Shown piece by piece: positions 15,289-56,984 of a DNA stretch of 64,000 bases (its first letter is position 1; every line of letters begins with the position of its first letter). The stretch covers positions 58,855-122,854 of IMG/VR virus record IMGVR_UViG_3300027747_004524; one strand, written 5' to 3'. This DNA is from a virus. The position numbers and the translations under genes are program-made. The notes below the pieces were generated by a model, which saw only the letters and a program-made list of their open reading frames with translations, ran no database searches and had not been told where the DNA came from.

Positions 15289-15648
15289 TTATTTCTTTAT
15301 GTGCTTTATGCTCCATGGTTCTCCTTCACCGTTGTTTGCTGCAAAATTGCTGTTCTTTTTAAGATGGCTTGGTTCTCCTTTTATGTGTTTTATATTCCAT
15401 CTTCCACCTTCTCCGCTGTTCATTCTTTTCGGTGGGCTTCCTGGTATGTGCGTTATGTCGAATTGTCCTCCATCATTATTCTTAAATATTCTCTCGTCAA
15501 TTGACATATAAAATATTGCATCTGCACTTCTTGTGGGATACCACTGTGGAGGATACAAGCCTATCCCACCATAACCTAATGGATATAGCCCTGTTTTTGC
15601 ACCAGCGTTGGTTCCTTCGCTAATTAACCAATCTTTGAACTTTAACAT
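15289..15648 (-). CDS. Phage protein with an N-terminal capsid-targeting-like motif
   Basis: Starts MLKFKDWLISEG; repeated G.GG.W.IKHI motif; TAAATA 5 nt upstream. Confidence 0.7.
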   Translation of the reverse strand: MLKFKDWLISEGTNAGAKTGLYPLGYGGIGLYPPQWYPTRSADAIFYMSIDERIFKNNDGGQFDITHIPGSPPKRMNSGEGGRWNIKHIKGEPSHLKKNSNFAANNGEGEPWSIKHIKK

Positions 15649-15741
15649 ATTTTTATTTAGTCATTCTTTCCTAAATATGATTAGAATTTTTGACTCTCTT
15701 GATCGATTCTTGTATATTATTACCTATCGAAAGGTTAGCTT

Positions 15742-16353
15742 ATGGTTGGTACTATCCAACAATCGAAAGTTTTAGTTCTGAATAGGTCGTGGCTTGCTAT
15801 AGGGATAACCACTTTAGAGGTTGCCATAGCCCGCGTCATGTCCGTTTACGCAGACGGAACTCCTAAGGCAAAAATCGTTGATCCTGTAAATGATTTTAGA
15901 TCTTTTGATTGGACTGATTGGACAAAAATGAGACCGACTGCTGGTGAAAAAGGTATAAGAACTGTGAACTACGTTCTTAGAGTACCTGAGGTGATACAAT
16001 TTACAAAATATGACAAGATGCCATCTAGAAAAATACATTACAACCGAAGAACAATTTACTTAAGAGATAACAACCAATGTCAATATTGCTCTTCAAAGAA
16101 CGATCTTTCATTGGACCACATTATCCCTAGATGCCAAGGTGGATTGACTACATGGGATAATATTGTTGTTGCCTGTGTTAAATGCAATCTCAAAAAGGCC
16201 GGAAGAACCCCTCAGGAAGCAGGCATGAAACTTTTAAAAGTTCCATCAAAGCCTAAATCCAATCTTTTTGTGACTACTGTAAAAGTTAAGTCCTGGGAAG
16301 CATTTTTAGGCGAAGCATACTGGATGACGGAACTAGACCACGACCACGATTGA
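15742..16353 (+). CDS. HNH endonuclease
   Basis: RD...CQYC, LDHIIPRCQGG..TWDNIV.AC.KCN.KK. Confidence 0.9.
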   Translation: MVGTIQQSKVLVLNRSWLAIGITTLEVAIARVMSVYADGTPKAKIVDPVNDFRSFDWTDWTKMRPTAGEKGIRTVNYVLRVPEVIQFTKYDKMPSRKIHYNRRTIYLRDNNQCQYCSSKNDLSLDHIIPRCQGGLTTWDNIVVACVKCNLKKAGRTPQEAGMKLLKVPSKPKSNLFVTTVKVKSWEAFLGEAYWMTELDHDHD

Positions 16354-16361
16354 ATAATAAA

Positions 16362-16919
16362 ATGACACCGGCACCAATTTATACATTTTTAGTTAATAAC
16401 ATAGATTATGAGATCATATACTCTCAGCCACTTCCTAGTAGTATAGAGAATGTGATAGGCAATCTTAACGAACAAGCCGTTTATGTACCTTACATAAACA
16501 AGCCATTAAAGAATGGCGATGCTTTTACTCTTTATGGCAAGAGGGCACAAATAGTTTATGATATGTTCATTGGTAAACGTCCAAAGATTTTGGAACTTTT
16601 AGCCACAACAGATCATATTCCTACCTTGATAACAAAAGATTTAGAGTTTGATAAGGTTTCTTTGCCTATAAAATCTGCTATTTCTTCTAGCTATAAAGCC
16701 ACCATAATAAATCGTTCTAGTCGTGAGGCTTTCTTTATTACAAAGGCATTTGACTCAAATGGTGATTCTATAAACATTTCTTTGAGCTCAAACGAGAGTT
16801 TAGACCCTTCTTCTCCTTCTGAATCGTTCTCCGTAAGTGTAGTTGGTGGAGCTATTTTAGAGCTAAAACTTCAAGCTTCTGAAAAGTTCTATTTCACATA
16901 CAATGAACTAACTTTTTAA
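16362..16919 (+). CDS. Hypothetical protein
   Basis: ORF in an operon with the flanking genes. Confidence 0.6.
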   Translation: MTPAPIYTFLVNNIDYEIIYSQPLPSSIENVIGNLNEQAVYVPYINKPLKNGDAFTLYGKRAQIVYDMFIGKRPKILELLATTDHIPTLITKDLEFDKVSLPIKSAISSSYKATIINRSSREAFFITKAFDSNGDSINISLSSNESLDPSSPSESFSVSVVGGAILELKLQASEKFYFTYNELTF

Positions 16920-17428
16920 TGACTTCTTTAGAAACCAACGTTAAAGATTGTTTCATAATCTCTCCTAATAGGATTCGAGATGACAGGGGGTTTTTTCAAG
17001 AAACCTTTGAAAAAGAAAAATACAGTTTTTTACCTGACTTAAATTGGGTTCAATCTAATTGGTCTTCGAGTAAAAAAAATGTTTTAAGAGGCATTCATTG
17101 TGCTTCATATTCTAAATTGGTTACTTGCGTTAAGGGTTCTGTGTGGGACGTTGTTATCGACTTAAGAAGAGATTCGTTTAGCTTTAAGGAGTTTTTCTTT
17201 GCCGAGTTAAGCGAATCAAATGGCAGACAGATTTATGTCCCCAAAGGTTGTGGTCATGGTTTTCTTTCTCTAGAAGACGAATCTTGTGTATTTTATCTTC
17301 AATCTGGTCTTTACTCTGTTTTAGGAGAAGAAACTTTTAAGTACGATAGTTTTGGTGTTGACTGGCCTAAGAATGGCGAATATATTTTGTCTGAGCGTGA
17401 TTCTCTAGCAAACCCTTTTAAAGATTAA
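16919..17428 (+). CDS. rmlC: dTDP-4-dehydrorhamnose 3,5-epimerase
   Basis: D.RGFF.E, Q.N.S.S...VLRG.H, KLV.CV.G.V.DV.IDLR, .P.G.GHGF.SL. Confidence 0.9.
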   Translation: MTSLETNVKDCFIISPNRIRDDRGFFQETFEKEKYSFLPDLNWVQSNWSSSKKNVLRGIHCASYSKLVTCVKGSVWDVVIDLRRDSFSFKEFFFAELSESNGRQIYVPKGCGHGFLSLEDESCVFYLQSGLYSVLGEETFKYDSFGVDWPKNGEYILSERDSLANPFKD

Positions 17429-17431
17429 AAT

Positions 17432-18607
17432 ATGTGGTCCGCTATTTTTGCTTTTTTTGCTTCTTTGGTAGGCGTATGGGCAATATTTAAGTACGTACTT
17501 CTTATAGAAGTTAGAATAGACACTAATACTTTTAAGACTCTCTATGAGCTTTGCAAAGAAGAAAAAAAAATAATTCTTCATGAAGAGCTCACCATGGAGA
17601 ATAGGCATCCTGTGTCTTTTGCGGCATTCTGCTTTTTTAAGGGGGCCCCATGGTTCTACATAGACAGAAATGAACGACTCATGCAGGCCGGTTGGAATGG
17701 AAAAGATCATGTAACCAATGTTACCTGCCTTCGATGGAAATACAAACTTCTTAAGAACTACTTTAACCAAAAAATAAAAGACATGCAGCTAGAAGCTCTT
17801 GGTGTGCCTGTTGAGCTGATGCTTCCTTATGGGACTGATAAAATAGGTTCTATTAAGAAGAGTTATCCTGAGCCCGTTGTAGAAGATCATCTTTGGAAAG
17901 ACTTTGAAAAAGAAGTAGAAGAGGTTTCACAAGGTGCTAGAAACAAAACTAGTGCTTTGCTATATGGCTTGCCAGGTAACGGGAAAACTAGCTTTGTTAA
18001 GCATCTAGCAACAAAGCACAGGTTGCCGATAATGATTTTCACTTTAGACCCAGAATGGAACAATCATGATCTACTCCTGTTGTTTTCTCAGATACCTAAA
18101 AGATGTATTGTTTTATTTGAAGATTTTGATAATTATTTTGATAAAAGAAAATGTATCATGGGCGGTGAGAACAAGTTTGTTAAGTTTACCTTTGATATTA
18201 TATTGAATGGTCTAGATGGAGTTTATACAACTCATGAGAACGTAGTCTTTGTGATGACCGTTAATGATATATCTAAAGTTGATTCTGCTTTAAGAAACAG
18301 ACCTTCTCGCTTTAAGTACACAAGACATTTTGATAACCCCCCAATCGAAGTTAGGAAAAAAATTCTTCCTGATGATTGGGCAAATTCCACCGAAGGTCTA
18401 AACCTAGACCAAGTTTTTAGAATGGCAGAGTATAGAAAAAGAGGTCTCTCAGTTGTTGACTCTTTGAACATGTTGGAAAAGGAACTGAACAAAAGCGATA
18501 TAGAAGCTATAGCTTACGAACGTTTCAAGCACAGAGAATCACTATCCATAGAAGGATCTGCTGAAGAAGATTGGGATTACGCAATCGACTTTCTTAAATC
18601 AAAGTAA
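17432..18607 (+). CDS. Membrane-anchored AAA+ ATPase (BCS1-like) with a DUF2934-like C-terminus
   Basis: N-terminal TM helix; Walker A GLPGNGKT; Walker B LFEDFD; LNGLDGV; RPSRF arginine finger; IAYERF...GSAEEDW tail. Confidence 0.8.
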   Translation: MWSAIFAFFASLVGVWAIFKYVLLIEVRIDTNTFKTLYELCKEEKKIILHEELTMENRHPVSFAAFCFFKGAPWFYIDRNERLMQAGWNGKDHVTNVTCLRWKYKLLKNYFNQKIKDMQLEALGVPVELMLPYGTDKIGSIKKSYPEPVVEDHLWKDFEKEVEEVSQGARNKTSALLYGLPGNGKTSFVKHLATKHRLPIMIFTLDPEWNNHDLLLLFSQIPKRCIVLFEDFDNYFDKRKCIMGGENKFVKFTFDIILNGLDGVYTTHENVVFVMTVNDISKVDSALRNRPSRFKYTRHFDNPPIEVRKKILPDDWANSTEGLNLDQVFRMAEYRKRGLSVVDSLNMLEKELNKSDIEAIAYERFKHRESLSIEGSAEEDWDYAIDFLKSK

Positions 18608-19499
18608 AGTCTATGAATTGGGTTTCTAAAATTTCTCTGGGGAATAAAGCACCAGATGCCAGTTCTGGTGTTTCGCTGTTCTTCCATTTGGATTTAATTC
18701 TTCTAAGTATCTCTGGCGTGTGAGTAAAAAACATTTCTATTGGTTGAGTTGTTACATGTTCCTTTATAATGCTAAATCCTGACTCCCTTATTATTTTTTT
18801 GTAAAAACTGATTGGATCTAGAATTTTTAAAGTCCTCATCTCTTCCAGACCCATGGAAATAAGCTCCTCCTCAGTAAATACCAAATGCAGATAAGCTTTG
18901 TTTAACTGCTTGTAGATATGTGTTCCATGTCTGCTTGACCATGGATGAATTCTTAATATTACTTTTCCTGTTTGTGGTTTTTTAACGCTTTGTATCTTTG
19001 CTAGTTCTTCTTTTGGATTCTTCGTGTGATCTAATACGTCATTAACTAGAATTATGTCGAATGGGCCTAGCTTCTCTACATCTTCCCAATTGCTTGTAAG
19101 TGTGAGTTTGCTTGGTTTGTCGAAATGTTCCCATTCTTGGTTTTTTAAGTCATACCCGACTGATTGTTCTGCCTCTTGGTTTGCAACAACGTATGGTATG
19201 TGTCCCTCTCCACATCCAAAATCTAAAAAGCTTTTTTCTTTTAAGCTTTCTCCTATAAACTCCTCAACGATACCATTTGCTCTAGATATTTTGTCTTCTT
19301 CTGAATCTCCACATATTAGGTCTTTAGGAACTGCTTCTGGCCAAATGCCAGACTTCGAAAGCATCCTAAGCTCGGTAATCTCAGAAAGCTTGTCCACCGG
19401 TTCTGGTATTACTCTATTTTCTTCATCTAGAAGTGTTTTAAGAAAGTCACTTATGTGATTTAAGGCTCTTATATACTCTTTAATGTTTTTTTGGTTCAT
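18594..19499 (-). CDS. Class I SAM-dependent methyltransferase
   Basis: FLDFGCGEG, VGYD, FDIIL..DVLDH motifs. Confidence 0.8.
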   Translation of the reverse strand: MNQKNIKEYIRALNHISDFLKTLLDEENRVIPEPVDKLSEITELRMLSKSGIWPEAVPKDLICGDSEEDKISRANGIVEEFIGESLKEKSFLDFGCGEGHIPYVVANQEAEQSVGYDLKNQEWEHFDKPSKLTLTSNWEDVEKLGPFDIILVNDVLDHTKNPKEELAKIQSVKKPQTGKVILRIHPWSSRHGTHIYKQLNKAYLHLVFTEEELISMGLEEMRTLKILDPISFYKKIIRESGFSIIKEHVTTQPIEMFFTHTPEILRRIKSKWKNSETPELASGALFPREILETQFIDFTLI

Positions 19500-19543
19500 T
19501 TTTACTCTCTTATAATATAAGAGTTATCCTAATTAATTTACAT

Positions 19544-20326
19544 ATGGAAGATAAAAAGAATACTATATCTAGAACTATAGAAAGAAAACAGTTTGATGGC
19601 GACGTTGAGATAATAGTGCCTTTTTACGGCAAACACTCTAACGTAAGCAAATTGTTGCAATCTATATTTAACAGCATCCACTCTAACCGGTATCTTATTA
19701 CCTTGGTTGACGATGCTTCAAAGAACGACAACTACTACTCACAGATTCAGAAAGCAAATCTACCCGGCGTTAGAATTCTTAGAAAAACCACTAACGGTGG
19801 TTTTGGATCAGCCGTTAATTTTGCCCTAAAAAATCCATTTAAATTTTCTGAACCTGAAAGGGTAATTCCGTATGTTGTCATAATGCACTCAGACGTTTTG
19901 CCTTCTTCTAAAGACTGGCTTTTTAATTTAGGATCTTCTTTAGAGAGAATGAAGGCAGACGGTGTTAAGATGGTTTCTCCTCTTACCGACAATCCTGTGG
20001 ACCCAATAGAACGCTTGGTCTCTAAAACAATGAATCCGAATGAAGACGATTTTGTTTTAACAGAAGAAGAATTTTTACCAATGTATTGTTCTATATGCCA
20101 TAGAGACTTATTTAAGTATGTAAGTATTCCCGAGTTGCCGTCTCATGTTGGTTTAGAAGCAAAAGAGTTCGCTCAAGGAATGAGAGCTAGAGGCTTTTTT
20201 CAAGGAGTTTGTTGTAAGAGCTGGGTTCACCATGAAGGAGGATCGACATTAAAGCTGTTTGAGAAAAAAAGGCGTAGGCTCAATAATGTTGCCAAAAATC
20301 AAGGAACTGACGGCACAAACGTTTAA
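19544..20326 (+). CDS. Glycosyltransferase family 2
   Basis: IIVPFY, LVDDAS, NGGFGSAVN, HSDV, W..H.GG.T. Confidence 0.8.
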   Translation: MEDKKNTISRTIERKQFDGDVEIIVPFYGKHSNVSKLLQSIFNSIHSNRYLITLVDDASKNDNYYSQIQKANLPGVRILRKTTNGGFGSAVNFALKNPFKFSEPERVIPYVVIMHSDVLPSSKDWLFNLGSSLERMKADGVKMVSPLTDNPVDPIERLVSKTMNPNEDDFVLTEEEFLPMYCSICHRDLFKYVSIPELPSHVGLEAKEFAQGMRARGFFQGVCCKSWVHHEGGSTLKLFEKKRRRLNNVAKNQGTDGTNV

Positions 20327-20389
20327 TTCAGTTTCTATTTTTACTATATAATTTAGTAATGGATTATTCATTCAAGGAGGATTTTTTCA

Positions 20390-20545
20390 ATGAAATGCAA
20401 AAAACCAGACGGAACCTATACGGTAGCTTCTATGAAGTACTACTACCCACGTTGCAGTAGAATTCTTCAGTCTTTAGGCATTTGCAATGGTAAGGCTGGA
20501 GCATGGGTTGCAGCCGTAACTGTTTGTGCACAAAGACTCTTCTAA
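20390..20545 (+). CDS. 51-aa four-Cys peptide (not in the ORF track)
   Basis: AAGGAGG RBS; MKCKKPDGTYTVASMKYYYPRCSRILQSLGICNGKAGAWVAAVTVCAQRLF; TATAAT upstream and terminator downstream. Confidence 0.7.
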   Translation: MKCKKPDGTYTVASMKYYYPRCSRILQSLGICNGKAGAWVAAVTVCAQRLF

Positions 20546-20574
20546 TGTTTCATAAAATTTGAACACAAAAAAGG

Positions 20575-20606
20575 AGCCGCTGGGTAACCCCTGGCGGCTT
20601 TTTTTT
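20575..20606 (+). terminator. Intrinsic terminator
   Basis: AGCCGCTGGG...CCTGGCGGCT GC-rich stem plus T-tract. Confidence 0.75.
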
Positions 20607-20633
20607 GACAATTTTCTTTTTTCTTGGTACAAT
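20605..20633 (+). promoter_or_regulatory. Sigma70-like promoter for the csrA operon
   Basis: TTGACA-17-TACAAT with TG extension. Confidence 0.75.
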
Positions 20634-20674
20634 TTTTTTGTTCCGAAACTTTCTTTCAACATGAAAGGGACTTT

Positions 20675-20875
20675 ATGTTGGTGCTTAGCAGAAAAAAGAA
20701 TGAAAATATAGTTATTGGTGACGATGTAAAAGTTTATGTTGTAGACATTCGAGGCGACACTGTGAGGCTTGGCATAGTTGCACCCGACAATGTTCCGGTC
20801 CACAGAAACGAAGTTTACGAAGCAATCAAAGAACAACACTATGACCGCCCTTCAGCCCAAAGAAGAAGACATTAA
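20675..20875 (+). CDS. csrA: Carbon storage regulator CsrA
   Basis: MLVLSRKKNENIVIGDDVKVYVVDIRGDTVRLGIVAP..VPVHRNEVY. Confidence 0.95.
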   Translation: MLVLSRKKNENIVIGDDVKVYVVDIRGDTVRLGIVAPDNVPVHRNEVYEAIKEQHYDRPSAQRRRH

Positions 20876-21494
20876 GATTGTTTCTTTTTTAGAAAAAATT
20901 TCTGAAGAAGTAAGTTATCGCTTTTTTGGAAAGAAACTTTATTTAAGCATAAAGCCTAGGTTTGAAAAAAACCTGGGCTTTATGTCCTTAAACGATACAC
21001 TGTTTTTTGGGCCAAAGATTTTTTCTTTGACCCCCACACAGATTGTAATTGAAACTTTTCACGAGATGGTGCATCGTGAAAATGAAAAGAGAGGAAACAA
21101 GGACGTTGGAACAAACTGCTATCACAACAAGCATTTTCTTAAGGAATGCGTTCAACGTGGGTTTTTTGTTATAAAGCACAGAAATCAAGGTTGGTCATTG
21201 CTATCTCTTTTGCCACCTAGAAACGTAGTTGAAATCAATTCCCTAAAAAATCCAGAGAAAGTCACGAACACAGAAGCGAGCAAAGCGGTAAATGAGATTG
21301 TTGAAGAAATTTGTTGGAAATATTTTTACAACTGTAGGTCTTCTATTCCTTCAAAACGAGAATATACCTACAAGTATACATGCTCATGTCCTTCTCCATT
21401 CAATAGCATACGCTCAGGTCGTGGCCCAACTAGCATGAACCCACCTAAAATTGTGTGCATGGTATGTGGACAGATGTTTACCCCAGCTGAATAG
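20841..21494 (+). CDS. SprT-like zinc metalloprotease
   Basis: T.FHEMVH (HExxH), H...F, C-terminal Y.C.C...C..C zinc ribbon. Confidence 0.7.
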   Translation: MTALQPKEEDIKIVSFLEKISEEVSYRFFGKKLYLSIKPRFEKNLGFMSLNDTLFFGPKIFSLTPTQIVIETFHEMVHRENEKRGNKDVGTNCYHNKHFLKECVQRGFFVIKHRNQGWSLLSLLPPRNVVEINSLKNPEKVTNTEASKAVNEIVEEICWKYFYNCRSSIPSKREYTYKYTCSCPSPFNSIRSGRGPTSMNPPKIVCMVCGQMFTPAE

Positions 21495-21599
21495 GCAGAC
21501 TGGGCAAAATGGGAAGAAATGCCCTTTTTTGGGCGGTTTTACAACGCCAAAAACGCTGTTAAACTTAGGGCATCCCTCTACTTGGTGGCATGGTGCGTC

Positions 21600-22235
21600 G
21601 TGAGAATAATTTACCCCCCTAGACCTAAAGGCAGGATGCTTCCTTCCGATTTGCCTTCTTATGAGGCGACCGGTCAATGGGTTGCCCAAAGGAAGTTTAG
21701 GGGTTCTAGGATAGTAGTTTATATTGGCAAGGATAGGAGCATAACGGTAGGTTCAAGGCACGGCAAGCCTTTCGCAAATTTCGAATTTACTCCTCAGCAA
21801 AAAGATGAGCTAATTTCAACGTTGAACTTAGAAGAGGGAAAAGATTACTGGCTGGATGGGGAGCTTATGAACAAAGATGTAGGCTCCACAAAAGAGGTAA
21901 TATTTTTTGATATTCTTCAAGCGGGCAAGTACTTGTTCTATCGCCCAGCACAGATCGAGAGATTCCAGCTTTTAACCAACATTTGTAACTCTCCTTCAAA
22001 GTTGTGCAAGGCAGGGATTGCATTGGAAATCTCGAAAAACTTTTGGCTTGCTGAATTATTTGACAAGAATTTCGAAGACCGTTATAAAGAGAGCCTTCAA
22101 AATCCACAACTTGAGGGGTTGGTTCTTCGTAAAAAGAATGTTGGTCTAGACTTTACTGGAGAAAAGGAATACGAAACCTCTTCTCTTTTAAGGTGCAGGA
22201 AGCCCTTTTCTGAAGATAAGGGTTACGAGTTTTGA
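21600..22235 (+). CDS. ATP-dependent ligase, adenylation domain only
   Basis: Motif I QRKFRG, III WLDGEL, IIIa IFFDIL, IV LEGLVLR, V RCRK; GTG start; no OB domain follows. Confidence 0.7.
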   Translation: MRIIYPPRPKGRMLPSDLPSYEATGQWVAQRKFRGSRIVVYIGKDRSITVGSRHGKPFANFEFTPQQKDELISTLNLEEGKDYWLDGELMNKDVGSTKEVIFFDILQAGKYLFYRPAQIERFQLLTNICNSPSKLCKAGIALEISKNFWLAELFDKNFEDRYKESLQNPQLEGLVLRKKNVGLDFTGEKEYETSSLLRCRKPFSEDKGYEF

Positions 22236-22293
22236 AAAACTGATTGTTTTTTTTGTTTTCTTTTCTTCTTACTCGTGAAAAGGGATTTTTTCG

Positions 22294-23739
22294 ATGAAAA
22301 AAGCTAGTGGTGTCGAACAACTTCACGGCAACTTCTACAAAGTTCCATTTTCGTCAATTCTGACCCCAGATAAAACTGAAGATTCTAGCGACTACTCTTT
22401 CTCTAATCCTAGGCTGCTTACTCAGACCGGTCTTAACGCCCTTACTGATAAAAAAGTTTCTTCTGATCTGCGTGAAGATATCAAGAAAAGAACTCTTCTC
22501 ACAGCTTTAATTTGTAGATGGGTCGATCATAATGGAGAGCTAAGGCCACAGCTTGTTGGTGGCGACCGTAGATATAGAGCTTTGGATTACCTCATTAAAA
22601 GAAAAGAAGAGGTTGTTGATCCAAGAACTCAAGGTACTTCCAAAGCTACCGCAGATGTTGCATACGAGCACATCGTATGCCAGATCTTTTCTTGTGAAAC
22701 CGACTTGGATGCAGCAGTTCTGTCTTGGGCAGAAAACAAGAATAGAGTAGACTTAACAGAAGGTCATGAAATTGCTGCTGTCATGGAACTTAGAAAGTTC
22801 AATGTTCCTGATGATAGAATCTTAGAGGTTCTGCAAAAAGACTCTAAATGGTTAAAAGAGACGGATGATCTGATTGAATCTTTAGATCAAGAATCTTTGA
22901 ACCTTCTTTGTGAAGACAAGCTCAAAAGAGGAGCTGCCATTCACGTTGCAAAGATAGACGTAGAAAAGCGGCCAGCTGTTCTCAAGGCTGCTTTAGAAAG
23001 GTCCGAGGAAATCCACGATAGAAAAATCGAAGCCCTCGACAAGCAACTTGTTTCTGTTAACAAAAAGAAAGACAGAGCAGAGACAAAAAAGGTAATAGCT
23101 GAAGGCTGTGGCGATAAAAAGCTTCTGGAAAGAGCACAAAAAGTCCTCAATAGGTCTGAGGAAAGAGAAAAAGAAATAGCAGAAAAGCGTTCTAAGTCAA
23201 AGCCAATAGCCTCCAAAAAAATGGTAGAGGTTGCTTGTAAGGAGGTTGGCGTTGATGTTGATGAGTCCAAAAAAGCCGGGAAGAAATCCATCAGAAAGGT
23301 CATGGATCAAATTCAAGAAATAATTGAGAAAGAAGGCGAAATCTCCTTCCTGGAAGGCGAGAGCATCTTTCTTGATGTAACTTTCCTTGAGTTGATCAAG
23401 ATGGTTTTGGACAAGCACGCTTTGAACGACTCCATAGACTTTGCAGAAACTTTGTCTGAGTGGCGAGATCTCTTTCCAGAAGAAGGTTCCGTTGCTACAG
23501 AAGATGAGGAAGAAGAAGATCAAGACGAGGAAGAATCTTCTTTGACCGATCAAGACAATGAAGATGAAGACGAAGATGAAGACAAAGATGAAGACAAAGA
23601 TGAAGACGAAGATGAAGATAATGAAGACGAAGAAGACGAAGGTGGAGACGATCAAGCTGTAGAAGACAACTATTCTGAGGATAATTATCCTGAGGATTGC
23701 GACTTCTATAATGAAGAAGACTCAGAAGACGATGACTGA
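22294..23739 (+). CDS. ParB/Srx-like N-terminal domain protein with coiled coil and acidic tail
   Basis: QLVGGDRRYRAL (GxRR box), EN..R.DL...EIA; C-terminal roughly 80 aa dominated by D/E. Confidence 0.7.
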   Translation: MKKASGVEQLHGNFYKVPFSSILTPDKTEDSSDYSFSNPRLLTQTGLNALTDKKVSSDLREDIKKRTLLTALICRWVDHNGELRPQLVGGDRRYRALDYLIKRKEEVVDPRTQGTSKATADVAYEHIVCQIFSCETDLDAAVLSWAENKNRVDLTEGHEIAAVMELRKFNVPDDRILEVLQKDSKWLKETDDLIESLDQESLNLLCEDKLKRGAAIHVAKIDVEKRPAVLKAALERSEEIHDRKIEALDKQLVSVNKKKDRAETKKVIAEGCGDKKLLERAQKVLNRSEEREKEIAEKRSKSKPIASKKMVEVACKEVGVDVDESKKAGKKSIRKVMDQIQEIIEKEGEISFLEGESIFLDVTFLELIKMVLDKHALNDSIDFAETLSEWRDLFPEEGSVATEDEEEEDQDEEESSLTDQDNEDEDEDEDKDEDKDEDEDEDNEDEEDEGGDDQAVEDNYSEDNYPEDCDFYNEEDSEDDD

Positions 23740-23762
23740 GTAAAAAATAGTCATATAATTTG

Positions 23763-23806
23763 GAAAAAAAGAAGGGGTGGTAGGCTAACGCTTACCGCCC
23801 CTTCTT
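23763..23806. terminator. Intrinsic terminator-like hairpin
   Basis: AAGAAGGGGTGGTAGGC-TAAC-GCTTACCGCCCCTTCTT with flanking A-tract. Confidence 0.7.
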
Positions 23807-23820
23807 GCATAAATAGTTAT

Positions 23821-24925: not shown

Positions 24926-25135
24926 TTATACATTCTTTGTTACTTCTTTGCTATCAGATCTAATATCCGATCTACTTGATAGCTCACTTCTTAGTACTGT
25001 GATTTCTTTGTCTGCTTCTATTCCAACTCTTACTTTATTCTTATTGTCTATTCTAACAATAGTTATCTTGATATCGTCCATATTTGGACCTCTTAAGATA
25101 ATTGTCTCGTCTTTCTTTCTGCTCAGAACTAACAT
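24926..25135 (-). CDS. csrA: Second, divergent CsrA-family protein
   Basis: MLVLSRKKDETIIL....DIKITIVRID..KVRVGIEA.KEITVLRSEL; AGGAG RBS. Confidence 0.85.
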   Translation of the reverse strand: MLVLSRKKDETIILRGPNMDDIKITIVRIDNKNKVRVGIEADKEITVLRSELSSRSDIRSDSKEVTKNV

Positions 25136-48877: not shown

Positions 48878-48878
48878 G

Positions 48879-49622
48879 CTATTCCTTATTTAAATAATTT
48901 ATTAGGTTAGAACAATTAACAAGGCCCTTGTACTCTTTCTGCTGCTCATCCATTCCCTCTATGGCTTTTACAAGTAGCTTCTTGTCTATGTTCTCTTCTT
49001 TAATTATATATTGCCTTAGTAGGAACAAACAGAATTTTTCTTTTGTAAATCCCACGGTAACCTGTCTTTCAACCTTAATTAGCACCTTTGGTTCATTTGG
49101 ATCAAATTTCTTTTCCGGGAACCTTGGGTGAAAGTTGTACTTATCCTCATAGACCACGCTCCAGACAAATCTTTCAAACATACCGTTGTTTATTATGGCC
49201 TCAACGAGTTTTTTGCTGTTCTTCAGGTTCATTGGTACCGGTTTATGTATTTCTTCAAAAGATGTGCCAATCTTTTTTTCGGGCAACCAATGGCTTGCAA
49301 AAACCACATGGGCAGAACACATATAATCTCTGTCTTGATCAATTCTGTGTATTATGAGGTCTTCGTCTATTTCTTTTGCTATATCAAGATACTTGCTGCT
49401 TTTAAGCTTTATTGGGTAGTTCTGTAGTATAAATTCTTCACATATTTCGTAAAACCTTGGTTCGTTTTGGCTCTCAAAGAAGTACTTTTGGTTTTTGAGA
49501 CCCTCTTGCTTTTCATCTTGTATTCTTTGTGATTCTTCTCTGTTGGTCTCGAATACTTCGCTTTTTGATACTTTTTTAAGGTTTGGGAGGGTGCTGTATC
49601 CTTGTTTGTATGGGTGGAACAT
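48879..49622 (-). CDS. DUF3445 / heme-dependent oxidative N-demethylase alpha-subunit-like protein
   Basis: EDL.I, V.F.S.W....KIG..F..IH.PVP, ERF.W, .VERQ motifs; GGAGG RBS. Confidence 0.7.
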   Translation of the reverse strand: MFHPYKQGYSTLPNLKKVSKSEVFETNREESQRIQDEKQEGLKNQKYFFESQNEPRFYEICEEFILQNYPIKLKSSKYLDIAKEIDEDLIIHRIDQDRDYMCSAHVVFASHWLPEKKIGTSFEEIHKPVPMNLKNSKKLVEAIINNGMFERFVWSVVYEDKYNFHPRFPEKKFDPNEPKVLIKVERQVTVGFTKEKFCLFLLRQYIIKEENIDKKLLVKAIEGMDEQQKEYKGLVNCSNLINYLNKE

Positions 49623-49684
49623 TAAATAACCTCCTTTTTTCTTCTATTCTACGCTAAATAGATGAGTAAACATGGAACATTATT

Positions 49685-50323
49685 ATGACTGAATCCTTTA
49701 AAGAGTGGTTAAAAAACGAAGAGTTAAACGAACAAGGTTTAACTCGTAGAAAACTTTTGTCTGGTGGGGCCGCCGCTCTTGTAGGAGCATTAGGTTTAAA
49801 CAAGGCCATGGGAGCCAACACATCAGCTAATTCACCTGGAGTTACAGCACCAGAGGATTCGGTTGGAATGATTCCACAGATAAGAAATTGGTCTGATAGA
49901 GATGGTACATTCTCTAAACAAGGTCATTTAGAGAGTTTAGACAAAAGCTTTGCTTACATAAGATTCACTGATAGCCCTGATAAGCTTACAAGAATACCAA
50001 GGAATTGGTTGTCTGACGAGGACAAGGAATACTTATCAATGTTTGAACAAGGAAGAAGAACACATCCAGCAGGCGATGCACAAGTTCAAAATGGTCCCTC
50101 AACGGTTCAACAAGGACAGGCAGAGAAGAAACCATTTAATCCAAAGTTTGGACCAAAGCCTTCTACAAAGAATCCAACACCGATGCAAGTGTATAGGCAT
50201 CAAGTAAGAATAGCTAGAGATGGAGCACATCAAGTTAGTCTAGGAAAGAAACCTCCTGTTGATTACCTGATTCTTTATAGATACTACAACGGTATTATGC
50301 CCGACCCTCCAGAGGATGAGTAA
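49685..50323 (+). CDS. Protein with a capsid-targeting-like tag, Tat-like signal and SHD1 domain
   Basis: SFKEWLKNEELNE | GLTRRKLL-hydrophobic-AMG; RNWSDRDGTFS...IP...LSDEDKEYL (SHD1-like). Confidence 0.7.
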   Translation: MTESFKEWLKNEELNEQGLTRRKLLSGGAAALVGALGLNKAMGANTSANSPGVTAPEDSVGMIPQIRNWSDRDGTFSKQGHLESLDKSFAYIRFTDSPDKLTRIPRNWLSDEDKEYLSMFEQGRRTHPAGDAQVQNGPSTVQQGQAEKKPFNPKFGPKPSTKNPTPMQVYRHQVRIARDGAHQVSLGKKPPVDYLILYRYYNGIMPDPPEDE

Positions 50324-50966
50324 CATGAATTTTAAAGAATGGTTTGAAATAAACGAAGTAAAAGATGCCTGTTACCATAAAGTTAAAAAAAGGTATAAAG
50401 TGTTCCCATCTGCTTATGCCTCAGGGGCTCTGGTAAAGTGTCGTAAAAAAGGAGCGAAAAATTGGGGCAACTCTAAGAAGAAGAAAAAGAAAATGTACAA
50501 GGAAGATATTAATGAGGCTCTAAAAGATAGAAAGCAATACGATGATGCTACAAAGGCAATGATGGCTCTTCACTATAGTGGTTTTGATGTAGAAAATGCA
50601 TCTGCAAAAGAAATAGAAGTTGCTCTTGAAAAAATGGGTAAGAACCCAACAGAGGGAGCTTCTCCCGGACTTTTTGCAGCAAGGGTAAAGTCTGTTGCAA
50701 AAGGCACAGTTCAGCCAGAAGACTTTAAAGAAGGTACTTTTGACCTTGAAAAGAAAAGAGGCTTAAGAGGCTGGTTTGATAGAAATGGAGGAAAAGGTTG
50801 GGTTGATTGTAAGGCTAGCCGAAAAGGAAATATAGTTCCATGTGGAAGAAAGTCTGCTGGTAAAGGAGCAGAGAGAAAATATCCAGCTTGCAGACCAAAT
50901 TTATCAGCTTGTAACAAAAAAGGTACTAAAAGTAAGAAAAGCAGCAAAAGAGTTTCCTGGGATTAG
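50316..50966 (+). CDS. Basic phage protein with a capsid-targeting-like N-terminus
   Basis: NFKEWFEINE; KDACYHKVK.RYKV.PSAYASGALVKCRK.GA.NWG; LR.WF...W..C...PCGR...YP.CRP. Confidence 0.7.
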   Translation: MSNMNFKEWFEINEVKDACYHKVKKRYKVFPSAYASGALVKCRKKGAKNWGNSKKKKKKMYKEDINEALKDRKQYDDATKAMMALHYSGFDVENASAKEIEVALEKMGKNPTEGASPGLFAARVKSVAKGTVQPEDFKEGTFDLEKKRGLRGWFDRNGGKGWVDCKASRKGNIVPCGRKSAGKGAERKYPACRPNLSACNKKGTKSKKSSKRVSWD

Positions 50967-51030
50967 GCGAGTTTGGCTCCCTATTTCAGCATATCAGATG
51001 ATAATATGTCTTTATGAGGTAACATGATAA

Positions 51031-51708
51031 ATGAATGATGCTGTGATAGTGAGCGACATACATTTGGGCAGTTCAGTTTGTCAATCCAAGAGGGTGTTGG
51101 AGTTATTAAAGCATATTGAAACTGGTGTTATTGAAACAAAAGAAATTATAATTAATGGGGATTTGTTTGATAGTTGGGATTTTAGAAAGCTTAGAGGTTC
51201 TCATTGGAAAGTTTTGTCTAAAATGCGAAGTCTTGCTAAAAGCAAACATATTGTGTGGATAAATGGTAATCATGATGGTCCGGCGGAAATAATATCTCAC
51301 TTAATTGGGGTTGATTTTGTGGATGAGTATGTGCTTGTGAGTGAGAATAAAAAAATATTAATTTTACATGGAGATAAATTTGATAAATTTATAGTAGATC
51401 ATCCTATTTTCACAAAGATCGCAGACCTAACATACAGAGCTATACAAAAGATAGACAATAGCTTTTATTTAGCTAAATTGGCCAAAAGAAGCAGCAAGAC
51501 ATTTCTAAGATGTTCGGAGCAGATTATGGACAGGGCCAAGATTTATGCAGAGAGCAAAGGTGTTGATGTTGTGTGTTGTGGTCACACCCACATGATTATG
51601 CAAAACGAAAAAGATAAGGTTTGGTATTACAATAGTGGTTGTTGGACTGAAGATCCTTGTCATTATATATTAATTAATAAAGGACTAGCTAGTATAAATC
51701 AATTTTAA
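51031..51708 (+). CDS. UDP-2,3-diacylglucosamine hydrolase-like metallophosphoesterase
   Basis: VSDIHLG, NGD.FD, GNHD, LHGD.FD, CGHTH, NSG.W. Confidence 0.75.
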   Translation: MNDAVIVSDIHLGSSVCQSKRVLELLKHIETGVIETKEIIINGDLFDSWDFRKLRGSHWKVLSKMRSLAKSKHIVWINGNHDGPAEIISHLIGVDFVDEYVLVSENKKILILHGDKFDKFIVDHPIFTKIADLTYRAIQKIDNSFYLAKLAKRSSKTFLRCSEQIMDRAKIYAESKGVDVVCCGHTHMIMQNEKDKVWYYNSGCWTEDPCHYILINKGLASINQF

Positions 51709-51765
51709 AACTTACTAACAAAATTCTAACAATTGAGCATAAATACTTTAAAAGAGGGAATCTTT

Positions 51766-52020
51766 ATGCAAAATTTTAGATTGATTTTAAGATGTTTGTT
51801 TTTTGGGTGTTTCACTTGTTGGATGGTGGTTTCTATGTTGAGCACGGAGCTACAAATACTAACCAACAGTGGATTTTCCGAGTTTATGGCAAAGGATCTT
51901 TATTATGGCTATTTGTCTGTGAGAGTGTTTTATGAAAACATATGTTTCATATCGATAATTAGTTTTTGTTGGGGATGTTTGATGGGATTTTTTTGGAGGC
52001 CCAACACATTCAATCTTTGA
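51766..52020 (+). CDS. Membrane protein
   Basis: Two hydrophobic helices; CATAAATA upstream. Confidence 0.55.
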   Translation: MQNFRLILRCLFFGCFTCWMVVSMLSTELQILTNSGFSEFMAKDLYYGYLSVRVFYENICFISIISFCWGCLMGFFWRPNTFNL

Positions 52021-52202
52021 TTTTTATATATCTCATCCACATGATTTTGGTTGTTGGAATGAGTATTTCTATGAGCATTATTCCAACTAATATTAATTTA
52101 ATTTCTATATTTTGTTGATTTATTTTTTCAATAAAGTCCATGAGTGCAATGGTTGTTATCAAAAGATAAGAACAAATTAGAAAATATAATTAAAAGTTTA
52201 CG

Positions 52203-53132
52203 TCAAGAAGCTGCTAAAGCTATAGCCGCAAGGTCTCCATTAAAGGCATAAGATCCAATGTGCTTGGTTTTCATCCAAGGACACAGGAAAACTTTACCAC
52301 CGATCTTTCTCCACATCTGACAGAACATATAGTCTTCGCTTAAGTACCTATCTGTGCCACCACCGGTTATGCTGTCTTGGGTGTCTATGACTGTATCAAA
52401 ATAAGCATGGATATATCTCGAACCATCAAAGTTTTCTTGTCCTACATGATCTGGTTTGTATTGTATCTGGGGTAATTTTTGATTCATTGCCTCAAAAACC
52501 TGTCTCTTTATCATCATGTAGCCGGTTCCTATTTCTAAAACTTCTGTTGGATCGTATATCAAAAGCTTCTTTTCTCCTCTTCCAACTGGTGAGTTTTTGT
52601 CTAGGTTGAAAACGAAGGTTCCAACAAGTTTTTCTAGTTCCTTTGGAGGTAGTTCTGGATTTCTTCTTGCTGCTTCTGCGATTGCTTCCCAGTTAATTGC
52701 CTTCTTTGGATAGGGCCCACCTACTAAATCTTTTTCTAGTGCCAATAGTGCAAGCACATCGTGTGGATCAACTTGAACGTCTGCGTCTATAAATAGCAAG
52801 TGGGTGCAATCTGATCTAAGAAACTCATCAACTAGGTAATTTCTAGCTCTTGTTATGAGCGACTCATTGAACAGGAACGAGAATCTAACCTCCACATTAT
52901 TGGCAGTCATAAGGTTTTGAATACCGAGGCATGACATTAAGAAAAGTCCGTGTGCCATCCCTCCATACATTGGGCACGCAACAAACAGCTTATACTTTTT
53001 TTCTCTTACACCCGCTAAAGCTGCTTTGAGGGAATCTTCGGTCAAAGAAAGCTTCTCTTCAGATGATTGTGCTTCGGTTTGTGCCTGGGGCTGTACAATT
53101 TCTTGGCTTTCTTTCTTTTTCTTTTTGGCCAT
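52203..53132 (-). CDS. GT-A fold (glycosyltransferase-like) phage protein
   Basis: P.YGG, SLI.RARN, THLLFIDAD, YPKK, GTG.M.I.R.VF, LSEDY.FC. Confidence 0.7.
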   Translation of the reverse strand: MAKKKKKESQEIVQPQAQTEAQSSEEKLSLTEDSLKAALAGVREKKYKLFVACPMYGGMAHGLFLMSCLGIQNLMTANNVEVRFSFLFNESLITRARNYLVDEFLRSDCTHLLFIDADVQVDPHDVLALLALEKDLVGGPYPKKAINWEAIAEAARRNPELPPKELEKLVGTFVFNLDKNSPVGRGEKKLLIYDPTEVLEIGTGYMMIKRQVFEAMNQKLPQIQYKPDHVGQENFDGSRYIHAYFDTVIDTQDSITGGGTDRYLSEDYMFCQMWRKIGGKVFLCPWMKTKHIGSYAFNGDLAAIALAAS

Positions 53133-53190
53133 TTTTATGGTCTCCTTTTTTTTACGACACCAATATATATTAATTAACAGGAGTTTATAA

Positions 53191-54450
53191 TTGCAAAATT
53201 TTAAATTATTTTTTGAGAGCTTATCTGAGGCTGCTGATTTAAAAAGCCAAATACTTGAGAGTTCCTTTTTAAAAGAAATACGGTATATGGGCGGAAGGCT
53301 CTACTTCGTTGGGGGGGCTACAAGAGACCATTATCTTGGCACCCCCTCAAAAGATATTGACGTAATTATATCAAACATTCCCGCAGACCAACTTACAAAC
53401 ATACTGAAAAAGCATGGAACAGTGAGTAGTGTTGGAGAATCTTTTGGAGTTATAAAGTTTATTCCTAATGAGTTTAAAGTTAGTGAGCCTATAGACATAG
53501 CTTTACCAAGAAAAGAACGTCCTATGACGGCTGAGGAGAGAGAAAACTATAAGCAAAAATATGGAAAATACCCCTCTGCCTACCAGGCTTTTACCGTAGA
53601 ACCAGACCACTTTTTAAAGATAGAAGACGATCTACTTAGAAGAGACTTTACGATAAACGCTATCGCCCACGATCATCTTGGGAATAGTGTGGATCCTCAT
53701 GGAGGAGTGAGAGACATTAAAAACAAAGTAATTAGAATGGTCTCTGCGAAAAACTTCTCAGAAGATCCTCTTAGGATGCTAAGAGGCGTACAGTTTGCTT
53801 CACGCTTTGGATTCAAGATTGAGTCTAAAACATTCGATGCTATCAAAAAAAATGCTTCTCTCATAAATGGCATACCAGGCGAACGCATACTCGTTGAACT
53901 AGAAAAGATAGTTAAAAAAGGAAATCAACTTTTGGGTGCAAAATTGCTTTGTGAAACAAGCTTATGGCAGGAGATATCAAGCTTATCTTGTAAAGACCAT
54001 AGCAAGGATGCCGCTTTATTTGAAGAAAGCGAAAAGTCTAAAACCGTAGCAGAGTTTTTGTTTTTAATGATGTTCAATGTCGCATCCTCTCAAGAAGCTT
54101 CTTCTTTGATTAAGAGATTAAAATGCGAAATCATCACCGAGAAGCAGATAAAAGGATTGTATTACGCATGGGAGAGTGATGACAATCCTCATTTAGTTGT
54201 TTTTAATCTTAACAGAATTCACCCAACATGTTTGCGGTTACTTGTTCTACCCCAGCATGTTAAGAATTCTATTTCTTCTGATATGCCTAAAAGTGTTAAA
54301 GACCTACAAATAAACGGCAGCGATTTAATGAGCTTGGGCTATAAAGGAGAAGACATATCAAGTGCTTTTAGTAATATTTTAAGGCAAATATTTAATGGAT
54401 CTATAGGTAACTCAAAAGAAGAAATAATTGACTTTCTTCAAAGCAATTAA
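53191..54450 (+). CDS. CCA-adding/poly(A) polymerase-family tRNA nucleotidyltransferase
   Basis: VGGATRD, KDIDV, RRDFTINA, EDPLRMLR..QFASRFGF, ERI..EL.K; N-terminal FKLFFESLSE tag; TTG start with AGGAG RBS. Confidence 0.9.
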   Translation: MQNFKLFFESLSEAADLKSQILESSFLKEIRYMGGRLYFVGGATRDHYLGTPSKDIDVIISNIPADQLTNILKKHGTVSSVGESFGVIKFIPNEFKVSEPIDIALPRKERPMTAEERENYKQKYGKYPSAYQAFTVEPDHFLKIEDDLLRRDFTINAIAHDHLGNSVDPHGGVRDIKNKVIRMVSAKNFSEDPLRMLRGVQFASRFGFKIESKTFDAIKKNASLINGIPGERILVELEKIVKKGNQLLGAKLLCETSLWQEISSLSCKDHSKDAALFEESEKSKTVAEFLFLMMFNVASSQEASSLIKRLKCEIITEKQIKGLYYAWESDDNPHLVVFNLNRIHPTCLRLLVLPQHVKNSISSDMPKSVKDLQINGSDLMSLGYKGEDISSAFSNILRQIFNGSIGNSKEEIIDFLQSN

Positions 54451-56420
54451 AGATTCCATTTTATTTCTTGACCGTATGCCTCTAAATCAAAGTCCTTGTA
54501 TTTGTTAACAAAAGTCTTTCTGCAAGTTTCCATGTATTCGTTGAGTTTGTTTCTTGTGGTCGATCTTCCTTTGTGGATATAAACACATTTAGGTTCATAT
54601 AAGATTTTAAGATTTAGTAAATGAGCCCGATACTGCCAGTCTGTGTCTTCAAAATAAAGTGGCTTAAAGTTTTCATCTAGTAGCCCAACTTTATTAATTG
54701 CGTCTCTTCTTAGGTATAATAAAGAGCCAGAACAATATCCAACAAACTTTCTTATATTATGCTCTTTTTTGTTTGGGTCGTCATCTCTTCCAAAGTTATG
54801 TCCATAGCCGTTATTAAAAACCATACTACCCGCTTCTTCTAGTAGTCCATTTTCCATTATTGCCTTCCCCCCACAGCAGGCGATCTCCCCAGCAATGTAG
54901 GCGCTATCCTGTATTATGCTCATCCAGCATTTAGTTGTAATAACAGTATCATCGTTTAACAAGATTATGTCTGAGCTCTTGAATCTTTCTATAACTTTGT
55001 TGTGAGGCCTAGAAAAGTATTCATTTTCTTCGTTTCTTACGTATTCTATCTTCATCTTTCTAAACTTGTACTTTTGCACTATACTCTCTACCGCATCCTC
55101 AGAACCGTTGTCTGTTACTACTACTTGAAAGTTTTTATAATCTGTATTTTTTTCTATAGAGTCTAAACAAGAGTCTAGTATTTCTTGGTTTTTGTAGGTT
55201 ACTATCGACACCACTACATGCGGCTCTGGGTTTGTTATTTTTTTAAGAATAGTCCTAGCTGATTCTTTTGAAACCAAGTTTATTGTTTTATTAAATGCTT
55301 TTGTTGTAATTTCTTTTATAAGATCATCATTTAGAGAATATATTTGCTTTAAACAGCCTATAAACTCTCTATCGTTATTTGCAACGAAGCAGTCTTCAAA
55401 GTTATTAAGATCAAACCCTTCGATTCCTATTCTACTTGTTAACACAGGAACTTTATTCATTATCGCTTCGCAGATTTTGCCTTTTATGCCAGCCCCCCAT
55501 GTAAGAGGAGCTATCAAGACTCTTGCTTTTTTAAGATATTCTCTTATGTCCTCCACATATCCAGTAACAAATACATCCTTATTGTCTGCTAGGCTTTTAA
55601 TTTCTTCTGTTGGTGCGTCACCTACTATGTACAAAGAGCATTTCTCTTTAGACTCTCTTTTAAACTTTTGATATATATCATAGGTTCTTATTGCTGCTAT
55701 TATATTTGGTTGGTGAATGAAACCTCCAATAAATACGATATCATTCCCGCCTTGGAATTTGTCTTTTTGTTCCTCATGTATGTTCGACAGCACCCGAACG
55801 TTACTCAGCCTGCATTCATTTTCGATTTCGATTCTGTCGTTATGAGTTACTGAAAGTACAATGTCACACGACTTGTAGAATAGCTTTTCTGACTCTTTCC
55901 TTTCAAAACTTGGAGCCCTTCCTCGTTCCTCTCTCAGCCAATGCACATCTACACTGTCTCCTACAATTTTGGTATTTGGTAATATAGATTTAACCACATT
56001 GACATAATAACCGGACTCCCACCAAGAAAAAAAAGCAGATGAGAACTTCAAACCTTTTTTCTCAAAGTCTTTCAGCTTTTCTGCTACATCTATACCATAG
56101 CAAAAATGTTTTATTCCTAAACTATCAAGTTTTCTTTCGTACTCTTTATTTGGCCCTTCATTAACAAAATAATAAACGTTATTATTTTCAGACAATATAG
56201 ATAAGATCTCTAGCAACCTCTTGCCACCGGAGTTTCTGTTGTAGTACGGCCACTGTGGAGAAAAATATAGTATATTATTCTTTTGCTTTTCTCTAAAAGA
56301 TCTGTTTTCTTTATGACCTATTGTAAGATAATGTAAGGTCGCTTGAGAACCATCGAGATGCATCAGATCGGGATTGCATCTTTTATAAGATTCTGCATTG
56401 AAGTCTAAGGGCAAAGCCAT
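54447..56420 (-). CDS. Multidomain glycosyltransferase (GT4-like plus GT2)
   Basis: F.GGF.HQPN, APL..GAG.KGKI.EA, DNGS, FSRPHN, LLNDD, YFEDTD. Confidence 0.85.
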   Translation of the reverse strand: MALPLDFNAESYKRCNPDLMHLDGSQATLHYLTIGHKENRSFREKQKNNILYFSPQWPYYNRNSGGKRLLEILSILSENNNVYYFVNEGPNKEYERKLDSLGIKHFCYGIDVAEKLKDFEKKGLKFSSAFFSWWESGYYVNVVKSILPNTKIVGDSVDVHWLREERGRAPSFERKESEKLFYKSCDIVLSVTHNDRIEIENECRLSNVRVLSNIHEEQKDKFQGGNDIVFIGGFIHQPNIIAAIRTYDIYQKFKRESKEKCSLYIVGDAPTEEIKSLADNKDVFVTGYVEDIREYLKKARVLIAPLTWGAGIKGKICEAIMNKVPVLTSRIGIEGFDLNNFEDCFVANNDREFIGCLKQIYSLNDDLIKEITTKAFNKTINLVSKESARTILKKITNPEPHVVVSIVTYKNQEILDSCLDSIEKNTDYKNFQVVVTDNGSEDAVESIVQKYKFRKMKIEYVRNEENEYFSRPHNKVIERFKSSDIILLNDDTVITTKCWMSIIQDSAYIAGEIACCGGKAIMENGLLEEAGSMVFNNGYGHNFGRDDDPNKKEHNIRKFVGYCSGSLLYLRRDAINKVGLLDENFKPLYFEDTDWQYRAHLLNLKILYEPKCVYIHKGRSTTRNKLNEYMETCRKTFVNKYKDFDLEAYGQEIKWNL

Positions 56421-56421
56421 G

Positions 56422-56610
56422 TTACTCTGACTTTTTCTTTTTTGTTGTTTTCTTCTTTGTGGCTTTCTTAGCCTTCTTTTTCACTGACTTCTTTTTTACT
56501 TCTTCGGTTTTTTTTGTGCTTTCAACTGAAGGTTCTATCGAAGGTTCTTCTTGTTGTTCACAAGGCTTTTGAACGGTAAAAAATTTCTTTATAAGTTCAA
56601 CTAAATTCAA
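56422..56610 (-). CDS. Small Lys-rich protein
   Basis: KKKAKKATKKKTTKKK tail; in an operon. Confidence 0.55.
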   Translation of the reverse strand: MNLVELIKKFFTVQKPCEQQEEPSIEPSVESTKKTEEVKKKSVKKKAKKATKKKTTKKKKSE

Positions 56611-56984
56611 CTTGACGCCTTTCTTGGATGGATTAAAAAAGATTCTTCACCTATTGTGAGATAGATGGAGTGCTCTTTTATAATATAGCAAATTGAAGAA
56701 AGAAATTTAACGAACTTTTTTAGGTTATTTTGGCCTTTAAAAGATACTTCGTATCTTTCGTGCTTATCTTTTATAACTTCATCGTCTTTAGACCAAAAGC
56801 CATGTATTTTACTGGTTTCATGTGTATAAGCGTAATAATTGTTAACAAAGAAGTCATGGATTTTACCCCTGACTTCTTTGTTCAATTTTTTGACAGGTAT
56901 ATAGAATGTGGCTACTTTGCCTATGTGCTTAACATTAAGCTCTTGTTTTATCCATTTTTTGAAATTGATCTTATCTAACGCCAT
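56607..56984 (-). CDS. Hypothetical protein with a capsid-targeting-like N-terminus
   Basis: NFKKWIKQE near the start. Confidence 0.6.
   Translation of the reverse strand: MALDKINFKKWIKQELNVKHIGKVATFYIPVKKLNKEVRGKIHDFFVNNYYAYTHETSKIHGFWSKDDEVIKDKHERYEVSFKGQNNLKKFVKFLSSICYIIKEHSIYLTIGEESFLIHPRKASS

Follow-up and report, generated by a model that had tools for sequence, protein, structure and literature searches.

The stretch of DNA analysed here (the window) forms the final 64 kb of a 122,854-bp virus contig of IMG/VR (IMGVR_UViG_3300027747_004524; about 25% complete according to CheckV), and five of its genes encode otherwise unrelated proteins that begin with the same kind of short peptide, hereafter called the tag. 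Altogether 16 tagged genes were found on the whole contig, 5 inside the window and 11 outside it. This shared N-terminus is likely, in our judgement, to be the version of the phage T4 capsid targeting sequence (CTS) used by this phage clade, and a varied set of proteins including several enzymes is probably packed with the DNA; confidence is lower for injection of the tagged proteins than for their capsid targeting. The tagged genes of the window, with coordinates and strand, are as follows.

15289..15648, minus strand: P0001, 119 residues; tag at residues 1-11 (15616-15648), ending I-S-E and followed by Gly, with a conserved G-L-Y-P...L-Y-P-P block after it
49685..50323, plus strand: P0002, 212 residues; tag at residues 1-16 (49685-49732), then a signal like those of twin-arginine translocation (Tat; twin Arg and a hydrophobic stretch ending A-x-G-A) and a conserved body
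50325..50966, plus strand: P0003, 213 residues from the ATG at 50325; tag at residues 1-11 (50325-50357); GAGGA ribosome site before 50325
53191..54450, plus strand: P0004, 419 residues, TTG start behind AGGAG; tag at residues 1-13 (53191-53229); CCA-adding tRNA nucleotidyltransferase
56607..56984, minus strand: P0005, 125 residues; tag at residues 1-15 (56940-56984); PII/CutA-like alpha/beta body

The five N-termini listed in an earlier note on this DNA (at 15648, 49685, 50316, 53191 and 56984) translate exactly as that note gave them. For P0003, the ATG at 50325 with its ribosome site is a likelier start than the position 50316 chosen there.

Frequency, anatomy and carriers of the tag

Genes were called on the whole contig with a simple script based on codon usage and ribosome sites, which yielded 180 genes, and two tagged genes whose starts had been missed by the gene caller were added, together with weaker tag variants. 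The motif F-K-x-[W/F] is present in the first 14 residues of 8 of these 180 genes, whereas 0.33 would be expected from its internal frequency, and a looser aromatic-pair pattern is found in 12 genes against 0.67 expected. When residues 2-20 of every protein were shuffled (1000 shuffles), F-K-x-[W/F] appeared on average 0.68 times and at most 5 times, never 8, so that the motif is commoner than in shuffled N-termini. With a position matrix of the tag, the per-position match rate was 45 times higher at N-termini than in protein interiors, a figure that is partly circular since the matrix was trained on the same tags; over three genomes the per-position excess of N-terminal over internal matches ranged from 13 to 45 fold. 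Past residue 20 the 16 tagged proteins are unrelated, the lowest pairwise BLASTP E-value being 0.076 and the Pfam and PHROG assignments differing, and the common start on dissimilar proteins described by the earlier note for five genes thus extends to a larger set. In two of the three genomes the tagged proteins also have a higher median isoelectric point than the other proteins (8.9 versus 6.3-6.4), and the internal proteins of T4 are basic as well.

Conservation of the tag is at the level of amino acids and not of DNA: the same residues are written with different codons (four for Leu, TTT/TTC, GAA/GAG), and the nucleotide words common to tag-coding segments reach 15 nt at most, with a median of 6 nt. 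Three candidate origins of the shared N-terminus were rejected, namely chance, by the shuffle test, a DNA repeat, by the lack of long shared nucleotide words, and a plain signal peptide.

The anatomy of the tag was drawn from 53 examples from the contig and its nearest complete relative, LR756511.1, and can be written M-x(1-6)-F-[K/R/N]-[E/Q/D]-[W/F]-[L/F/I/M], usually followed by Glu. The first aromatic is F in 51 of the 53 tags; 27 tags have it at residue 4 and 12 have it at residue 3 (39 of 53 together); K, R or N follows directly, and then E, Q or D. Three residues after the first aromatic comes the second, which is W in 37 tags and F in the other 16, followed in most tags by a hydrophobic residue (L, F, M, V or I), and acidic residues are enriched 2 to 5 positions further on. 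In the AlphaFold models of two tagged proteins, P0001 and P0005, the tag is modelled as a short helix of its own, apart from the folded domain.

Tag-like peptides were also noticed in other settings. A 588-aa protein encoded outside the window (genome 26484-28250, minus strand) contains a perfect tag-like S-F-K-E-W-L near residue 382, where a second repeat begins that weakly resembles its own N-terminal half (E 0.085), and may be a fusion that took in a once separate tagged gene. In the product of LR756511.1 544812-545360 (minus strand) and in P0170, an N-terminal domain of about 55 residues, rich in Lys and Ser and containing Cys, precedes K-F-K-E-W and then the cargo, which makes the tag internal. 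In T4 itself gp61.1 (L050:67-231), a hypothetical protein of 54 residues whose gene lies next to that of the primase, starts with M-K-T-F-K-E-F-I-K-E, an almost perfect targeting-type leader.

The families of the tagged proteins were compared in order to follow the tag and the residues behind it. In the P0001 family (60 representatives of clusters at 50% identity), the aromatic pair is kept in 58 members, 51 of which also contain [LIVM]-x-E, mostly 3-5 residues past the second aromatic and with Gly or Ala most often as the next residue; F4 and E11 are conserved at 90% or more. Only the tag (residues 4-12) is helical in the AlphaFold model of P0001, the remainder being of low confidence (mean predicted local distance difference test score, pLDDT, of 58), and the protein is predicted to be largely disordered. 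A tblastn search with P0001 against cultured-phage records gave no match. All 7 members of the P0002 family (45-98% identity) keep S-F-[K/R]-[E/D]-[W/Y] and then the hydrophobic signal, with the twin Arg in 6 of them. The body of P0003 is Lys-rich, contains Cys and is DUF5872-like (Pfam DUF5872 E 0.0019, below the curated cut-off; phrog_727 E 3e-19).

P0004 matches Pfam PolyA_pol (1e-22) beginning at residue 37. The peptide F-[K/R]-[L/I]-F-[F/L/V]-E is retained by all 21 of its full-length orthologues (58-99% identity), whereas the stretch of 5-10 residues behind it differs among them in both sequence and length; homologues of the CCA-adding enzyme at 48% identity or less are without the tag, their catalytic motif being correspondingly nearer to the N-terminus.

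P0005 was modelled with a mean pLDDT of 89.6, with a tag helix at residues 8-14, a coil linker at 15-22 and a domain from residue 23 that folds like the subunit of a PII/CutA trimer; A-Y-T-H-E and H-E-R-Y-E are among the invariant residues. In structure it is matched best by the phage S-adenosylmethionine (SAM) lyase 6ZM9 (Foldseek E 8.6e-5; VIA Z 9.6; root mean square deviation of 3.7 over 107 residues), a match only about 1 Z above CutA/PII proteins; on this model P0005 is tentatively taken as SAM-lyase-like, with a possible role as an enzyme against restriction. Roughly half of the P0005-family proteins in databases appear tagless and start at an internal Met, and in the IMG/VR relatives L146:401-751 and L147:401-745 an in-frame TTG start a few codons upstream restores the full tag. 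These tagless entries are gene-calling artefacts due to missed TTG starts.

Tagged cargo elsewhere on the contig includes an ArdC-like protein (weak metalloprotease match), a weak 2H-phosphoesterase candidate and an acidic protein rich in Asp, Glu and His. Across the P0001, P0002, P0004 and P0005 families the tag is kept among orthologues while the linkers that follow it vary; as far as sequence comparison can tell, the tag is under selection as a module.

Head genes of relatives and the TAAATA/TATATA element

The nearest complete relative, LR756511.1, is an uncultured phage of 595 kb whose PrkA-like kinase is 66% identical to that of the contig; 64 of the 180 contig genes have a match in it, with long syntenic runs and a median identity of 43.5%. 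Among its gene products are an S77 protease (PF03420, 7e-28; 35% identical to T4 gp21) with a scaffold-like protein adjacent, a capsid protein of the gp23 type (PF07068, 5e-87), and a portal and a large terminase that resemble gp20 and gp17 and match these T4 proteins by BLASTP, the head proteins as a group being 23-35% identical to T4's. Three consecutive tagged genes adjoin its capsid gene. The same S77 protease/scaffold/gp23-type module is present in a second relative, G004 (262 kb, 70% marker identity), where a tagged gene adjoins the capsid gene too. The tag is enriched in both relatives, with at least 28 of 1131 genes in LR756511.1 and 16 of 387 in G004.

A short AT-rich element, TAAATA or TATATA, was found upstream of tagged genes, and its occurrences in the window before P0001, P0002 and P0004 are given below.

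15654..15659, minus strand: TAAATA, 5 nt upstream of the P0001 start codon; late-promoter-like, and implying a very short leader or none
49655..49660, plus strand: TAAATA, 24 nt upstream of the P0002 start
53163..53170, plus strand: ATATATAT, 20-22 nt upstream of the P0004 start

Among unit-leading genes of the contig, TAAATA or TATATA lies within 50 nt upstream of 6 out of 6 tagged genes as compared with 12 out of 74 untagged ones (p 6e-5), and in LR756511.1 the corresponding figures are 9 of 14 and 64 of 427 (p 6e-5). In the latter genome the element also stands before the genes for the capsid protein and the terminase, and before a head-cluster gene that encodes 616 residues. The late promoter of T4 is TATAAATA, and the element of this clade would, by its motif, be a late promoter. 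Because no T4 gp55-like late sigma factor was found in LR756511.1 at E below 1e-6 (BLASTP), it is from the motif that this reading is drawn.

In five tagged genes (element at window 15654-15659, minus strand, and at genome 2340, 30815, 55847 and 55900) the element was seen 4-8 nt from the ATG with no visible ribosome-binding site. If it acts as a -10-like promoter, the mRNAs of these five genes would be nearly leaderless.

Likeness to T4 and competing explanations

According to PMC9026906, the first 10 residues of the T4 internal protein IPIII suffice for its packaging, targeting operates mainly via residues 4 and 7 (Tyr and Phe), processing via residues 8 and 10 (Ile and Glu), and gp21 cleaves after L/I-x-E. 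The leaders of IPII and IPIII were confirmed directly from T4 DNA. Like the T4 CTS, carried by IPII and IPIII and related to the leader of IPI, the tag described here is an N-terminal peptide of about 10 residues on otherwise unrelated proteins, and it matches the T4 pattern of aromatics at i and i+3 near residues 4 and 7, in most tags with a hydrophobic residue next and usually with a nearby Glu. Several tags of the relatives begin M-K-T-F-x-[E/Q]-W-[L/I/M], where those of T4 read M-K-T-Y-Q-E-F-I, and the opening M-K-T-F is seen in many. A T4-type S77 protease, a scaffold and a gp23-type shell are likewise found in two relatives within this clade, and in both systems the cargo genes vary between relatives and the cargo is mostly basic.

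The two systems differ in several respects. The consensus is Y-Q-E-F-I in T4 and F-K-E-W-L here, and the Glu, fixed at +3 in T4, lies 2 to 5 residues past the second aromatic in this clade and is missing from one family. T4 has three Ip genes (PMC12373910), with at least ten across its relatives, whereas 16 cargoes are counted here on a quarter-genome fragment. Unlike in T4, enzymes of considerable size and one protein bearing an export signal are among the cargo, and the phage that carries it is huge and uncultured. Enzyme cargo is plausible, since particles of the cultured megaphage G hold 104 of its 668 proteins, many of them enzymes (PMC12484599).

Were the tag to act as a capsid targeting sequence, the tagged proteins would be made late, alongside the head proteins, and the short amphipathic helix, with its two aromatics three residues apart and the aliphatic residue that follows, would bind the prohead scaffolding core. 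The cargo would then be enclosed as the gp23-type shell assembles, a prohead protease of the T4 gp21 type (S77) would remove the tag at a nearby Glu in most cargoes, and the cargo would remain beside the DNA inside the head, some or all of it passing into the next host cell along with the genome. Core binding, cleavage, retention in the head and injection are thus steps that we infer, whereas the tag with its statistics and conservation, the T4-type head module of the relatives and the association with the late-promoter-like element are observed. The cargo set of the contig would suit early counter-defence and RNA repair.

The comparison with the T4 CTS had been drawn in the earlier note, which took the tagged proteins for a packaged, co-injected effector set. 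The pattern of the tag, the head module of the relatives, the conservation among orthologues and the late-promoter-like element all speak for the comparison, and the note's interpretation is supported in part, with packaging, cleavage after Glu and above all co-injection of effectors being conjectural. Several observations weigh against the interpretation. The (I/L)-x-E that the note placed in most tags proved to be far from universal: in the form [LIVM]-x-E it is present in only half of them (26 of 53), which is nonetheless above the 22% of control N-termini. The P0005 family is without a conserved Glu before its domain and, for this reason, may by analogy be targeted without processing, which T4 allows according to PMC9026906. 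The tag of P0002 precedes a Tat-like export signal, which is odd for a capsid-bound protein and fits a simple model poorly, and a few tag-like motifs are internal rather than N-terminal. The tag matrix scores T4 IPII at 1.7 and IPIII at 0.1, with a threshold of 10, mainly owing to the Tyr of T4 at the first aromatic, and its best T4 matches are Dmd and gp61.1, with one apparent match inside uvsW; neither Dmd nor gp61.1 is, to our knowledge, a head protein. The likeness to the T4 leaders is therefore best described as one of pattern and physico-chemistry, not as demonstrable homology. The association of the element with the tag is not significant in G004 (p 0.087). Finally, the S77 protease/head module was not found on the contig itself, about a quarter of the genome, in a PF03420 search, and 4 of 5 larger IMG/VR fragments, whose marker is 70-82% identical, were likewise without the S77 protease, which is no surprise at a completeness of 27-52%; the head module of the contig's phage is presumed from that of relatives with 66-70% identity in a single marker protein.

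A wider form of the capsid-targeting interpretation is regarded as doubtful. It holds that the tag drives an injected proteome which, in size and in its share of enzymes, goes far beyond those described for T4-type phages and would include a pre-loaded tRNA-repair kit (the CCA-adding enzyme and perhaps the 2H-phosphoesterase-like protein) against tRNA-targeting defences and, in P0002, a two-step address whereby removal of the tag in the head exposes the Tat signal for export to the periplasm of the new host.

The tag could instead load proteins into the prohead as parts of the assembly core or head interior that are degraded or kept with the capsid, and not as delivered effectors. We consider this unlikely, although the largely disordered prediction for P0001, the scaffold-like look of the acidic P0006 with its coiled-coil ends, and the position of tagged genes next to the head module of the relatives would all agree with it, as would the fate of the T4 core proteins gp22, gp67 and gp68, which are cut up and mostly expelled according to PMC9026906. 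Folded cargo of enzyme or counter-defence type, such as the CCA-adding enzyme, the ArdC-like protein and the SAM-lyase-like fold, has no obvious assembly role, however, and T4 internal proteins with a similar tag are injected and block restriction (PMC3012670, PMC12373910).

Somewhat less credible still is a role of the tag as an address or docking motif that leads elsewhere than to the capsid, for instance to a membrane, into an export pathway, to a compartment made by the phage, or to a partner such as a hub protein. The P0002 family, which keeps the tag directly before its Tat-like signal, the internal tag-like motifs, and the usefulness of the CCA-adding enzyme and similar proteins in the producing cell as well are in keeping with such a role. 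However, the tag is hydrophilic and amphipathic, unlike a signal peptide, it co-occurs with a T4-type head module and with an element found upstream of head genes, and the P0001 family conserves a protease-type [LIVM]-x-E-Gly/Ala site; moreover, the tag matches the T4 determinants position by position, as these are set out in PMC9026906.

A constraint at the level of nucleic acids (a translation-initiation region, a leaderless mRNA or a recombination cassette) is very improbable as the source of the shared start, since, against the AT-rich codons used and the possibly leaderless mRNAs of the five genes with the element 4-8 nt from the ATG, synonymous codons vary with no shared DNA word above 15 nt, the best-kept residue is Trp (codon TGG), ordinary ribosome sites are as frequent as short leaders among tagged genes, and the tag is kept in orthologues at 45-80% identity while neighbouring residues drift.

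Two further systems in which proteins are loaded into phage heads were compared with this clade. The propeptides of the phiKZ-like giants (phiKZ, 201phi2-1 and SPN3US, with gp175/gp245-type proteases) are long and varied, with the motif S/A/G-x-E, and we know of no short shared N-terminal address peptide described for these phages. They are likewise giant and have dozens of head-loaded proteins, and a protease related to T4 gp21 cuts their inner-body and ejection propeptides after Glu, many proteins being ejected into the host, as described in PMC9026906 and PMC13282480; the cleavage sites are reported to have almost no sequence determinant beyond Glu (PMC9026906). The capsid and protease of the present clade are much closer to those of T4 (Pfam Gp23 5e-87, S77 7e-28). 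In the Dar system of phage P1 (DarA/Hdf-dependent), anti-restriction proteins are likewise described as being incorporated while the head forms and as reaching the host together with the DNA. Incorporation of the Dar proteins depends on a hierarchy of partner proteins and is not known to rely on one short shared leader.

Implications and neighbouring genes

Knowledge of the tag mechanism in T4 goes back to the 1990s, and a literature search on huge phages and capsid targeting, and on the accession LR756511.1, found no report of such tags in huge phages or megaphages. Should the tag act as it does in T4, sequence alone would be enough to list what an uncultured clade of megaphages packages, with 16 predicted cargo genes on this fragment and at least 30 in the complete relative. 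Candidates for counter-defence or repair among them would be the ArdC-like protein, the SAM-lyase-like fold and the CCA-adding enzyme. With the T4 mechanism and its anti-restriction cargo well established (PMC3012670, PMC12373910), the gain would be one of reach and scale and not a new principle. There is also a lesson for annotation, as missed TTG starts make some members of database families look tagless and gene callers systematically truncate some tags.

Several other genes were noticed besides those carrying the tag. Two small genes of the window (20675-20875, plus strand, and 24926-25135, minus strand) have near-identical N-termini (M-L-V-L-S-R-K-K), and one of them has a 75%-identical counterpart in LR756511.1; we take their products to resemble the carbon-storage regulator CsrA. 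Near the end of the window a 1275-aa tail-fibre-like protein is encoded (59228-63055, plus strand; several PHROG tail-fibre families, best E 6e-93), with a TAAATT-containing AT-rich stretch upstream, and is followed by a collagen-repeat protein (63169-63999, plus strand) that runs off the end of the contig. Outside the window, the gene for the DNA polymerase III alpha subunit (genome 32166-35399, plus strand) has a weak intein-splicing match (Pfam E 7e-7, 29.7 bits, cut-off 35.8), and the N-terminal PHP part of this polymerase is apparently encoded as a separate gene at genome 23856-25262.

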